Below are positions 29,594-40,389 of a DNA stretch of 64,000 bases, one piece after another (position 1 is the stretch's first letter; every line of letters starts with the position of its first letter). The stretch is from an uncultured Acidobacteriota bacterium (GTDB taxonomy: Bacteria; Acidobacteriota; Thermoanaerobaculia; Gp7-AA8): NCBI GenBank assembly GCA_963822445.1, contig CAWGHO010000003.1, positions 384,001-448,000 of the forward strand, given 5' to 3'. The notes beneath the pieces are model-generated. The model ran no database searches. It saw nothing but the letters and a program-made list of their open reading frames with translations, and was not told the origin of the DNA. Made by a program: the position numbers and the translations under genes.

Positions 29594-29707
29594 CAGTTTA
29601 TCCCGCGCGAAGACGCGGGATCTCTCCGTGCACGAACGATCCTCGTGTTTGGGCGGCAGCCGTCGCGGTGTAACCGGAGATCCCGCGTCTGCGCGCGGGA
29701 TAAACTG
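29594..29707. repeat. REPIN/MITE-like inverted doublet of REP-like hairpins (copy A)
   Basis: CAGTTT-ATCCCGCG-CGAAGA-CGCGGGAT-CTC ... GAG-ATCCCGCG-TCTGCG-CGCGGGAT-AAACTG. Confidence 0.92.
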
Positions 29708-37843: not shown

Positions 37844-37957
37844 CAGTTTATCCCGCGCGAAGACGCGGGATCTCTCCGTGCACGAACGAGGATCGCGCGT
37901 GGCTTCGGTCGTCTCGGTGTAGCGGGGAGATCCCGCGTCTGCGCGCGGGATAAAATC
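37844..37957. repeat. REPIN/MITE-like inverted doublet (copy B), between ftsE and ftsX
   Basis: First 46 nt and a 29-nt right arm are identical to copy A, with the same arm spacing; the central 36 nt have diverged. Confidence 0.92.
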
Positions 37958-37963
37958 AAAGGC

Positions 37964-38677
37964 TCAACCGATACCGAACAACCCTGCCTCGCGCTGGATC
38001 CGCGGCTCGATCACGCGCGCCTTTTCGTCGGCGATGCGGCCGTGCTCGAGGGTGATCACGCGGCGGCCGCTGGTGCGGATCAGATCGCGATCGTGCGTCG
38101 CCAGGAGTACCGTCGATCCGCGCAGGTTCGCCTCGGCGAAGATCTGCACGATCTCCGTCGAAAGGTCGGGATCGAGATTGCCCGTCGGCTCGTCGGCAAC
38201 GAGCACGAGCGGATCATTGATCAGCGCGCGGGCGATGGCGACGCGCTGCTGCTCGCCGCCGGAGAGCTGCGGCGGATAGGCATTCAGCTTGTGATGCAGG
38301 CTGACCATGCGCAACGCCTGATACGCCTTTTTCTTGTGCTCTTTCGGCGGGACGTTGAGGACGGTGAGGATGAAGGAGAGGTTCTCGAAGACGGTCATCC
38401 GCTCGATGAGCTTGAAGTCCTGGAAGACCATGCCGATCTCGCGGCGGAAGTAGGGGAGCTGCGATTTCTTCATCGACGCGAGATTGCGGCCGTTCACGAC
38501 GATCTGTCCTTCGGAGGGCTCCATCTGCCGGAGGATCAGCTTGAGGAGCGTCGATTTGCCGGCGCCGCTGGGCCCGGTCAGGAAAACGAACTCGCCCTTG
38601 TCGATGTGAAAGGTCACGTCGTACAGCGCGGTCGAGTAACGGTCGAAGCGCTTGGTGACGTGGTAGAAGTGGATCAT
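37964..38677 (-). CDS. ftsE: Cell division ATP-binding protein FtsE
   Basis: GEFVFLTGPSGAGKST, IGMVFQDFKL, LSGGEQQRVAIARA, ADEPTGNLD. Confidence 0.95.
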   Translation of the reverse strand: MIHFYHVTKRFDRYSTALYDVTFHIDKGEFVFLTGPSGAGKSTLLKLILRQMEPSEGQIVVNGRNLASMKKSQLPYFRREIGMVFQDFKLIERMTVFENLSFILTVLNVPPKEHKKKAYQALRMVSLHHKLNAYPPQLSGGEQQRVAIARALINDPLVLVADEPTGNLDPDLSTEIVQIFAEANLRGSTVLLATHDRDLIRTSGRRVITLEHGRIADEKARVIEPRIQREAGLFGIG

Positions 38678-38712
38678 GGCGGCTGTCCTGCGCTGTAGTT
38701 TACCTCGCGTTC

Positions 38713-39194
38713 CTTAGTTCACCCCTTTGAGTTCACCCCGCGCGAAGACGCGGGGTCAATGGAGCAACCTTCGGAATGTCCGATTGGTACGTGTACATCA
38801 TCAGCAACAACGCGCACACGCTGTACACAGGTGCTACGCACGACCTGCCGAAGCGGATTCAACAGCACAAGGAGCGCACGTACGCGACGTCTTTCACCGC
38901 GAGGTACACGTTCGACCGGTGCGTGTACTACGAATGGGTCGGCGCGCAGACAGCAGCCATCGAGCGCGAACAGCAGATCAAACGGTGGCCGCGGAGGAGG
39001 CGCGTGGCGCTGATCGAGAGCGTGAATCCAAACTGGATCGATCTGAGTGCGCGATGGGCGCTCGATCGAGTGCTTTCGTAGGTTGGTTTCCGCTCTCAGT
39101 TCACCCCGCGCGAAGACGCGGGGTCAATGGAGCAACCTTCGGGATCTAGCAGGTTGCGCCGCTGATCCCGCGTCTTCGCGCGGGATAAACTAAG
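38713..39194. mobile_element. GIY-YIG cassette flanked by REP-like hairpins
   Basis: Identical 45-bp direct repeats at 38730-38774 and 39098-39142, inverted third copy at 39151-39191, partial copy at 38716-38725; outer ends CTTAGTT / AACTAAG are inverted. Confidence 0.7.
38776..39081 (+). CDS. Small stand-alone GIY-YIG nuclease family protein
   Basis: YVYI...LYTG.T.DL..R..QH...FT..Y...VYYE...AIEREQQIKRW.R...LIE..NPNW.DL. Confidence 0.92.
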   Translation: MSDWYVYIISNNAHTLYTGATHDLPKRIQQHKERTYATSFTARYTFDRCVYYEWVGAQTAAIEREQQIKRWPRRRRVALIESVNPNWIDLSARWALDRVLS

Positions 39195-39201
39195 AAACCC
39201 C

Positions 39202-40389
39202 CTACGAACCCCGCAAAGCCACCGCCACCGGCGTGCGCACCGCGCGAATCGCGGGGAACAACCCGCCGATCAAGCCGATGATCAGCGCGTAGGCGATGGC
39301 CCAGGTCATGAGGCGGGCGTTCACGTCGAAGGCGAAGGCGACCTGGCTGAAGGTCTGCCAGTTCATCGTCGCGGTGCGGTAGCCGTCGAAGGCCAGGTAC
39401 GCGCCGATGGCACCGACGGCGCCGCCGACCAAAGCCAGGAGCAGAGCCTCGAAGACGACGGAGATCATGACGGCGCTGCCGCGGAATCCGAGGGCTTCGA
39501 GGGTTGCGATCTCGCGGGCTCGGGCGGAGACGGCGGTGTACATCGTGTTGAGCGCGCCGAAGATCGCGCCGAGTCCCATCAGCGTGCAGACGAACACCGC
39601 CAGCCCACGGACGAGACCCTGCAGCGTCTTCGACTGCTCGGCGTAAAACTCCGTCTCGCGCTGGATCTTCAGATTCACGCGCGGGTCGGCGGTGAGGGCG
39701 TCCTTGAACTGATTGAAGCTGCCGGCCGAGGCGAGTTTCACGAGAACGGTCTGATAAGAGTTGCCTCGCTGGTACGCGGGTGCGAGCACGGCTGCATCGG
39801 CCCAGACCTCCGATTCGGAGATCCCGCCGCTGCCTTCGAAGAGGCCAACCACCTTCCAGCGCGTCTGGCCGAACTTCATCTCCGTCCCGACATCAGTCTT
39901 CGCGAACTGCGAATGCGCGGAGCGTCCCACGATGACCTCGTTCGTTCCCCAGCGGAACATCTGCCCTTGGACGATCTTGATCTCCGGCCGCACGGCGAAT
40001 GCTTCCTGCGTCACGCCGCGCATGGGCACGTTCGCGCTGGTGCCGGTCGACCGTTTCTCCAGATCGACGAGCACGAACAGCTCCGGTGACGCCATCGGCT
40101 TGTCGCCCTGTCGCGCGACGGCGGGCGCGTTGCGAATCACATCCACTTCATCGCGCGCGAGCACGCTGGACATCTCGCTGTCCGAGCCGCCGCGCAGCAC
40201 GACCACCGAATCCGGCGAGCCGGCGACGGTCATCACTCGCGCAAACCCTTCACCGATGGAGAGCACGCCGACGAGCACGGCGACGACACCCGCGACTCCG
40301 AACACTGCGGCGGCCGCGGACCCGAACCGCGCGGGAAGAGTGCGCAGGTTGAAACCGATCAGCGCCGCGATCTGTGAGAACCAGTTCAT
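39202..40389 (-). CDS. MacB/FtsX-family ABC permease
   Basis: N-terminal TM, periplasmic domain, GALNTMY..V..R.REIATL.ALGF, GGLFPAIRA. Confidence 0.9.
   Translation of the reverse strand: MNWFSQIAALIGFNLRTLPARFGSAAAAVFGVAGVVAVLVGVLSIGEGFARVMTVAGSPDSVVVLRGGSDSEMSSVLARDEVDVIRNAPAVARQGDKPMASPELFVLVDLEKRSTGTSANVPMRGVTQEAFAVRPEIKIVQGQMFRWGTNEVIVGRSAHSQFAKTDVGTEMKFGQTRWKVVGLFEGSGGISESEVWADAAVLAPAYQRGNSYQTVLVKLASAGSFNQFKDALTADPRVNLKIQRETEFYAEQSKTLQGLVRGLAVFVCTLMGLGAIFGALNTMYTAVSARAREIATLEALGFRGSAVMISVVFEALLLALVGGAVGAIGAYLAFDGYRTATMNWQTFSQVAFAFDVNARLMTWAIAYALIIGLIGGLFPAIRAVRTPVAVALRGS

Follow-up and report, generated by a model that had tools for sequence, protein, structure and literature searches.

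A probable Ssn-type GIY-YIG nuclease gene with its own family of tagged hairpin repeats in a Thermoanaerobaculia genome

We analyzed a 64,000-nucleotide stretch of DNA from an uncultured Thermoanaerobaculia bacterium, hereafter the window (C3:384001-448000 of genome G000, an assembly of 6.0 Mb in 3 contigs that is 94.7% complete), around a gene for a 101-amino-acid (aa) GIY-YIG protein at 38776-39081 on the forward strand that is enclosed by hairpin repeats. The locus is most likely a module of the Ssn/SRM kind, in which an Ssn-family GIY-YIG nuclease is accompanied by its own family of tagged hairpin repeats. Chenal et al. (Nat Commun 2025, PMC11893778) describe single-domain GIY-YIG proteins of the cd10448 group, named Ssn, that are flanked by hairpin repeats in many phyla; the general name for these repeats is SRM, and those of Neisseria are known as NTS. 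An earlier note on this DNA had proposed a new GIY-YIG system resembling repetitive extragenic palindromes (REPs). The pairing of gene and repeats proved real and general, but its kind had already been described in that article: the idea of a hairpin-linked GIY-YIG nuclease was right in substance and is no longer new, and the finding is a real new example of the kind described in 2025, not a new kind.

The gene, of the ssn type according to Pfam, alignment and a structure model, opposes both of its neighbors, ftsE (37964-38677) and a MacB/FtsX-type permease gene (39202-40389), which lie on the reverse strand. Its coordinates in the open reading frame (ORF) list include the stop codon, and its product matches the Pfam GIY-YIG family PF01541 over residues 4-74 (E 1.3e-14, 54.7 bits vs a cut-off of 22.6). 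To its left, a repeat unit of the 'B' subtype (38730-38774, forward strand; repeat search, sequence comparison and fold) consists of the tag AGTTC, the hairpin ACCCCGCG-CGAAGA-CGCGGGGT and the tail CAATGGAGCAACCTTCGG, and stops 1 nt short of the ATG. To its right, a second copy of this unit (39098-39142, forward strand), identical at every one of the 45 letters, forms the left arm of a gene-less, REPIN-like doublet; with looser ends, the two direct repeats reach 56 nt at 93% identity. An inverted unit found by the repeat search at 39151-39194 (reverse strand), with an 'A'-type stem and a 'B'-type tail, serves as right arm of the doublet and closes the entire composite on that side; this inverted copy, taken as 39151-39191 or as far as 39195, is 84-85% complementary to the direct repeats. 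On the far left, the repeat family search returned a partial arm of tag plus first stem half (CTTAGTTCACCCC, 38713-38725, forward strand), whose 13 nt match the outer end of the right-hand arm (39182-39194), and the outer ends of the composite read CTTAGTT...AACTAAG. The stem variants ACCCCGCG...CGCGGGGT and ATCCCGCG...CGCGGGAT are one compensatory pair (T-A/C-G) apart. The window locus is a composite of partial arm, arm, ORF and ORF-less doublet, and the 13-nt spacer of this doublet, TTCGGGATCTAGC, reads much like the beginning of the neighboring ORF (TTCGGAATG) joined to its stop codon (TAG). Folded as single-stranded DNA, the lone left unit reached -10.6 kcal/mol (z -1.9) and the doublet (39094-39195) -40 kcal/mol (z -8.5), doublets overall falling between -40 and -49 kcal/mol (z -8.5 to -9.8).

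This architecture agrees with the earlier note on the lone opposing gene, the identical 45-bp direct repeats, the third, inverted copy at 39151, the inverted ends and the compensatory stem variants, and the partial copy that it had placed near 38716-38725 was seen as the 13 nt given above. The note also had the upstream repeat supply the ribosome-binding site of the gene. A GGAG does lie inside the repeat, 11 nt before the ATG, but its use is only plausible because the spacing to the ATG is long.

Protein comparisons place the window gene among the Ssn nucleases. As a proxy for the 94-aa SsnA of N. meningitidis we used a 94-aa NTS-flanked protein from the genus Neisseria (L187), on which the Y6/Y17/E64 numbering of Chenal et al. 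fits. The window protein is 43% identical to it over 86 residues in a pairwise alignment (E 6e-20) that spans residues 5-89 of its 94; the membership criteria given in that article are a blastp E < 1e-10 to SsnA and at least 75% query cover. Six NTS-flanked loci of the genus Neisseria are 41-43% identical to the window protein (E 3e-17 to 4e-16), as is, at 43%, the product of an alphaproteobacterial gene embedded in exact NTS arrays (L167), homologues of which were found in 12 of 41 Neisseria-genus genomes. Genomes of N. lactamica and N. mucosa, reached through NTS matches, contained only a UPF0213-like small gene and UvrC. The UPF0213-like small GIY-YIG protein of N. lactamica, taken as a negative control, scored only E 0.017 against the window protein, and its gene, unlike the window gene, has no flanking repeats. 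Residues Y7, Y17, R27, H31, E65 and N84 were invariant in an alignment of seven sequences (A1), and Y7, Y17 and E65 of the window protein align with the catalytic Y6, Y17 and E64 of SsnA, whose cutting is abolished by Y6A, Y17A and E64A (PMC11893778).

The predicted structure (pLDDT 88, pTM 0.80) has a single GIY-YIG core followed by C-terminal helices, and among solved folds it comes closest to UPF0213 BH0048, Slx1, UvrC-N and I-TevI, in a library without an Ssn structure. Sequence similarity to the UPF0213/YhbQ-like proteins and Slx1 is nevertheless weak, a sequence search of the PDB with the window protein returning only BH0048 (1zg2, E 0.002), and NCBIfam has no family for the window protein. 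Homing endonucleases of the I-TevI type carry an extra DNA-binding domain and cut double-stranded targets in which their gene is absent, whereas neither Pfam nor the model gives the window protein a second domain. With its 101 aa, the single-domain protein also stays under the 150-aa limit set for Ssn proteins.

The gene is accompanied by a repeat family that extends well beyond it. The 18-nt hairpin core, searched with up to 2 mismatches, has 7 matches in the window against a shuffle mean of 0.10, and none of 100 shuffles reached 7. Two gene-less inverted doublets account for the hairpins that the earlier note had reported at 29594 and 37844: one at 29594-29707, with 'XY' arms as in the second cassette of the genome (fold z -9.8) and core pairs at 29602/29682, and one of the same family at 37844-37957, which fills the gap between ftsE and ftsX (core search, fold z -9.5) and has its pairs at 37852/37932; neither is assigned a strand. 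Over the whole genome, the core with up to 2 mismatches gave 83 matches, a handful of those at 2 mismatches being plainly unrelated. The genome-wide count that the note had proposed as a check came to about 77 units scattered through the 6 Mb, as determined by blastn-short with two 48-nt arms as queries, a census that overlooks two partner units found by the core search. Among the 77 units are 33 convergent pairs with the tags on the outside: 15 are of the 'XX' arm type (~109 bp), 11 are 'XY' (114-116 or 147-151 bp, with one of 234 bp and one of 413 bp, the latter being the cassette on C1), and the remaining 7 have a 'B' arm or an arm not typed by the script. Unpaired units number 11, two of them owing to the blastn-short misses. 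No coding-like ORF spans 29 of 32 doublets, and many doublets of the genome lie within a few bases of gene ends. The tag AGTT(T/C) is present in 75/77 units, the C directly after the hairpin is kept in the units of this genome, and positions -6 to -2 ahead of the tag are weakly T-rich. While the outer ~30 nt of the unit are nearly invariant, the doublet centers drift.

Rfam gave sub-threshold matches to microRNA hairpins only, with no CRISPR repeat family and no known RNA for the repeat. The idea of a likeness to type I-E CRISPR repeats was dropped, the units being inverted pairs and not arrays. None of the public sequencing runs searched contained more than 0.13 of the sampled words. At C2:852756-853116, two near-identical doublets of 162 bp, separated by 199 bp, share their flanks, which marks a local duplication in tandem, element included.

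The rest of the genome provides a second instance of the gene. Pfam GIY-YIG matches in the whole genome are limited to 3, namely the window gene, a 632-aa open frame that is UvrC-like judging by its length, and a small gene at C1:1118231-1118533 on the reverse strand, whose product is 54% identical to the window protein. This gene sits exactly between two inverted units, and both small GIY-YIG genes of the genome (2/2) thus lie between repeat units. Furthermore, the match between the 'XY' doublets and the C1 cassette begins at the tag, runs as far as the last base ahead of the GTG start codon and resumes just after the TAG stop, with 10-45 unrelated bases in place of the cassette ORF. Because the doublets share the cassette arms as far as both the start and the stop codon, gene and repeats form one family, the doublets being either cassettes without the ORF or the structures into whose loop the ORF is set. 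This collinearity of doublets and cassette up to the start and stop codons is new here.

The same pairing recurs in relatives. The window protein has matches in 26 of the 41 genomes searched (this genome included) and, within the genus, in 19 of 24, one of the five without a match being unpublished. Homologues number 0-3 per genome and are only 39-61% identical, while FtsE is 86-92% identical across the genus. Genes encoding proteins at least 48% identical to the window protein total 17 (15 in relatives and 2 in G000), and 16 of these are bracketed within ~100 nt by an inverted hairpin pair, the exception being L037; hairpins at the flanks of GIY-YIG homologues, which the earlier note had proposed to look for, are thus the rule among these close ones. 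Between genomes the stems of the repeats differ and the frame is kept. Proteins that we call alpha go with the frame (A/T)ATCC-stem-loop-stem-GGATCTCCGG, and those that we call beta, to which the window protein belongs, with CCC-stem...GGGGTCAA/GGGGCCA; canonical GTCAT-tagged repeats, sought with our own regular expression, lie near 19 of 24 more distant homologues. In a maximum-likelihood tree of 38 proteins (the partial L033 left out), support by the Shimodaira-Hasegawa-like approximate likelihood ratio test was 95 for the alpha plus beta clade, 90 for alpha alone and 96 for beta plus L016, with the window protein on a lone branch inside the alpha plus beta clade. Repeat class required 4 changes on this tree vs a shuffled mean of 14.6, with 0/200 shuffles as low, although the labels were assigned after the flanks had been seen and kin share labels, which counts against the comparison. 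Within the alpha clade, the stem sequence also follows the subclades. The co-variation of hairpin sequence with protein phylogeny that the note had put forward is therefore found in this set.

Two arrangements were observed at individual homologues. Upstream of the ssn gene at L014 (G016) stand three tandem copies of ~80 nt, each combining the left arm with the initial ~25 nt of the ORF region, a duplication of arm and gene start that resembles the doubled left arm of the window. At L218 (G086) and L021 (G019), the ORF of a distant homologue continues into the downstream GTCAT-tagged repeat, which thus codes the C-terminal tail of the protein (e.g. ...DPSLRSG).

Compared with the published Ssn/SRM modules, the locus has the same ~95-100-aa single-domain GIY-YIG protein with the same catalytic residues, the same inverted tagged hairpin copies on both sides of the gene and scattered genome-wide, the same C right after the palindrome and the same co-variation of nuclease and repeat. 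It differs in its tag, AGTT(T/C)A instead of (C/T)GTCA(T/C), in its repeats, which are mostly 108-116-bp doublets sharing 45-58-nt arms with the cassette, and in its host, a Thermoanaerobaculia genus. In Supplementary Data 4 of Chenal et al. (PMC11893778), the sole member of this class that we found, Thermoanaerobaculum aquaticum, is without an ssnA homologue, and Acidobacterium capsulatum has a homologue without repeat enrichment. The exact 28-nt NTS motif itself occurs in at least 129 places in many phyla, and this exact NTS consensus across phyla is a striking conservation of the repeat. Its records include, among the matches listed (L038-L166), Dehalococcoidia, Planctomycetota, Nitrospirota, Gemmatimonadota, Verrucomicrobiota and many Proteobacteria. 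Our literature searches on SsnA returned only Chenal et al. (2025), and term searches for work linking GIY-YIG to REP, REPIN, MITE or RAYT (REP-associated tyrosine transposase) found nothing relevant.

Several observations weigh against an Ssn/SRM assignment, or against carrying the properties of the known modules over to this one. The published SRM pattern, expected within 500 bp on both sides of an Ssn gene, has 0 matches in 38600-39300, and in Neisseria it is the tag that governs cleavage. The pattern misses the locus because it asks for HGTCWY where the tag here reads AGTT(T/C)A; this tag, AGTTYA, which lies outside the published search pattern, is new here. The same pattern does detect the repeats at the alphaproteobacterial, Sphingopyxis and Neisseria genes, and its 64 matches in the G000 genome form no repeat family, since 13 of the 15 commonest strings shown occur once. 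Cleavage, strand and site of the window enzyme would have to be read across from an enzyme that is 43% identical. The two largest repeat populations in the genus (195 copies in G013 and 85 in G024) are orphans, and in G012, G001 and G016 the exact gene-flanking variant occurs only at the cassette, as judged with a generic frame pattern in five genomes; G016 instead has many units of the same frame with other stems. Finally, pairwise identity between doublets has a median of 0.79 and a maximum of 0.90, and the lack of any near-identical pair means that there is no sign of recent copying and that no young copies are seen.

The history of the cassettes was followed at three junctions. At the junction upstream of ftsE, where the earlier note had proposed to look for empty sites, a cassette is absent from all 26 relatives (one unpublished), and in G017 this junction measures only 18 bp. 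The junction (38678-39201 in the window; L192-L217) is highly variable in the genus: many relatives have an additional small membrane-protein ORF there, which looks by eye to be of the CrcB type, and others have palindromes of tandem 8-mers or GGAGT-footed hairpins. Because the relatives are without the cassette and the junction is diverse, the window cassette is a lineage-specific and later arrival at a variable spot, a hot spot for palindromic elements. The neighboring ftsE and ftsX genes overlap or adjoin (-9 to +8 nt) in 12 of 26 relatives, and the gap between them in G000, G023 and G013 holds a doublet of this repeat family. In the window this gap is 130 nt long and is filled by the doublet at 37844-37957, which is presumably transcribed inside the operon, and no target duplication is evident at the insertion. 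In relatives without the doublet or with other palindromic elements in the gap (L197, L199, L200, L204, L206 and L216), the gap often ends in ..(G/T)(A/T)AAACT(G/C), 6-10 nt before the ftsX start; this conserved end may be a remnant of a right repeat arm.

The alpha cassette between lgt and aroC (names given from the reading frames), outside the window, is intact in six genomes (G000, G023, G012, G016, G001 and G090), and the stems of its arms vary from one genome to another. An in-frame TGA makes it a pseudogene in G018; G024 has kept both arms around another palindrome that has taken the place of the ORF, and in G013 nothing but a right-arm remnant is left. The lgt-aroC cassette is old and vertically inherited in the genus, its arms changing along with the protein. 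The main repeat variant (ATCCCGCGCGNAGACGCGGGATC) was counted per genome, with 195 copies in G013, 85 in G024, 80 in G018, 72 in G023, 63 in G000, 55 in G090, 15 in G086, 8 in G012, 5 in G014 and 0-3 in all others. Five homologue-free genomes, G005, G009, G010 (71% complete), G020 and one unpublished, have 0 copies, so that absence of the gene goes with absence of the repeat. G024 has no intact small GIY-YIG gene, however, and the only one in G013 is of the distant type. Also new here is the finding of two relatives that still carry 85 and 195 repeats but no longer the gene, and their retention of repeats after gene loss at the shared site argues against a need for the gene in repeat maintenance. 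Of the earlier note's hairpin-recognizing nuclease that spreads or maintains a repeat family, the recognition is backed by homology to Ssn enzymes characterized in vitro and is a reasonable prediction for the window enzyme, but its role in spread or maintenance is a hypothesis.

According to PMC11893778, binding of N. meningitidis SsnA to its repeat requires single-stranded DNA in one orientation, and the cut falls a few bases upstream of the repeat. Binding depends most on the C after the palindrome and cleavage on the three bases before it, the characterized Ssn enzymes do not cut double-stranded DNA, and SsnA reduces transformation by repeat-bearing DNA. By homology, the window enzyme would likewise bind its repeat only on single-stranded DNA and in one orientation, with the hairpin, the C that follows it and the short tag on its 5' side as the features read, and characterized relatives suggest a nick within the T-rich stretch, a few bases 5' of the tag. 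Because the tags point outward in the cassette and in every doublet, the predicted nicks would fall just outside each end, one per strand. The active site is intact, the gene is constantly paired with outward-tagged hairpins, and protein and repeat co-vary. The likely role of the module is that of a selfish pair of nuclease and repeats, domesticated in part, by which single-stranded DNA carrying the repeats would be marked and cut, as in Neisseria; it would act on the recombination of such DNA and perhaps on the copying of the repeats.

How the repeats came to be dispersed allows for several explanations. Ssn might itself mobilize them, with an autonomous cassette, non-autonomous doublets and nicks at the tags that start copying, which would make it a GIY-YIG counterpart of RAYT/REPIN or IS200/IS605; we consider this possible, though only tentatively. 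The outward tags at both ends, the collinearity of doublets and cassette ends, the lineage-specific window cassette, the absence of main-variant copies from the five homologue-free genomes and the weak T-rich preference before the tag fit such a mechanism, as does the window doublet spacer, whose letters, TTCGGGATC followed by TAGC, resemble the beginning and the stop of the ORF beside it. Conversely, the highest copy numbers are found in genomes that have lost the gene, no young copies occur among the doublets, and the ftsE-ftsX insertion has no target duplication. GIY-YIG enzymes hydrolyze DNA without a covalent intermediate, so that strand transfer would need host functions. We regard as rather doubtful a reading in which the Ssn cassette stands for an undescribed bacterial class of autonomous mobile elements with a GIY-YIG single-strand nuclease as sole gene, the ~35 doublets being non-autonomous, ORF-less derivatives copied after nicks at the outward tags. 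The repeats might instead be address tags for a host-serving restriction of single-stranded DNA, the nuclease trimming tagged strands and the repeats spreading by other means, a conceivable role that we would advance only with reserve. It is the only function shown experimentally for the family (PMC11893778). The single copy of the gene linked to aroC keeps its synteny in 6 genomes and evolves in step with its arms, and the near-invariant repeat ends next to drifting doublet centers suggest selection on the recognized unit. Homologues of ComEC and DprA are also present in the genome, but say little because they are detected in 10-11 of 14 control genomes as well. Moreover, the gene is patchily distributed (0-3 copies), has become a pseudogene in G018 and has been lost from G024 and G013, which is less easily reconciled with service to the host.

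A homing-type process, in which the repeats are targets and the nuclease gene inserts into the loops of pre-existing doublets, seems unlikely, even though both ORFs lie exactly between arms, the window ORF adjoins an empty doublet and only 2 of ~35 doublets are occupied: characterized Ssn enzymes leave double-stranded DNA uncut (PMC11893778), the protein is without an I-TevI-like extra DNA-binding domain, and simple targeting does not need arms that co-vary with the protein. It is very improbable that the repeats are ordinary REPs moved by a RAYT-like tyrosine transposase of the genome with the GIY-YIG genes as passengers. The genome does have four Y1_Tnp (RAYT-like) matches, all on contig C2 (149470, 335771, 1162531 and 1610903; the frame at C2:1610903 is 567 aa long and may be a fusion or a spurious extension), but no repeat core lies within 1.5 kb of any of them, the nearest unit being ~7 kb off, and the tag is not GTAG. 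Two of these genes (L001 and L004) carry other flanking repeats, of the GGAGCGCCGGCG and GGAGTGCGGCGG types, and the other two (L002 and L003) have no clear flanking inverted repeat. No RAYT gene with AGTTTATCCCGCGCG units, the observation by which the earlier note would have given up its proposal, was found in the assembled 94.7% of the genome. Since two RAYT-like genes have hairpin repeats of their own, RAYT/REP and Ssn/SRM systems coexist in one genome. A chance landing of doublets around small genes is hardly credible: doublets do pack tightly at gene ends genome-wide, but both genes of G000 and 16 of the 17 close homologues (those 2 included) are bracketed, and the bracketing repeats differ in sequence between genomes.

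Several known systems resemble the locus in part. Like REP/REPIN-RAYT systems, it combines short extragenic palindromes, mostly in inverted doublets, with a gene that is present once, is passed on vertically and lies between repeats of its own, and leaves orphan repeat populations once the gene is lost; the enzyme, however, is a GIY-YIG hydrolase here and an HUH/Y1 transposase there, and the tag is AGTT(T/C)A here and GTAG there. IS200/IS605 elements use covalent tyrosine chemistry and a defined target tetranucleotide. Their recognition of subterminal hairpins in single-stranded DNA and their strand-specific action would be shared with the locus only by analogy. In the Discussion of Chenal et al. 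(PMC11893778), the arrangement NTS-ssnA-NTS is likened to an insertion sequence and set beside IS200/IS605, REPs and BIMEs. The CGTC/TGTC-tagged REPs of Di Nocera et al. (2013, PMC3733652) have a GC-rich stem of 8-9 bp whose first pairs are A-T and T-A, a short loop and a short tail that stays unpaired, with paired inverted units, which also occur here, and no transposase gene attached, a description that the units here match in part. The A-type stem (ATCCCGCG/CGCGGGAT) fits this A/T-pair start, and the B type starts AC/GT. Those REPs differ in their tag (CGTC, TGTC or CCTC vs AGTT here) and in their loop of 4-5 nt vs 6 nt here as drawn, and the arms here run 15-25 nt past the hairpin.

Two questions left by PMC11893778 are the role of Ssn outside Neisseria and whether Ssn spreads its repeats; Ssn may drive such spread, which is a hypothesis in the present case as in that article. 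Because the tag can drift, to AGTTYA in this genus, the published pattern under-counts systems of this kind. For users of such enzymes, the alpha and beta types provide two candidate single-strand nucleases with distinct predicted sites. With its syntenic cassette, a later second cassette, collinear ORF-less doublets and sister genomes that have lost the gene and hold up to 195 repeats, the genus constitutes a natural experiment. If the cassette is indeed a mobile element, the genus would record its arrival (ftsE), residence (lgt-aroC), decay into a pseudogene (G018) and loss with orphaned repeats (G024 and G013), and this record could make the question of repeat spread testable.

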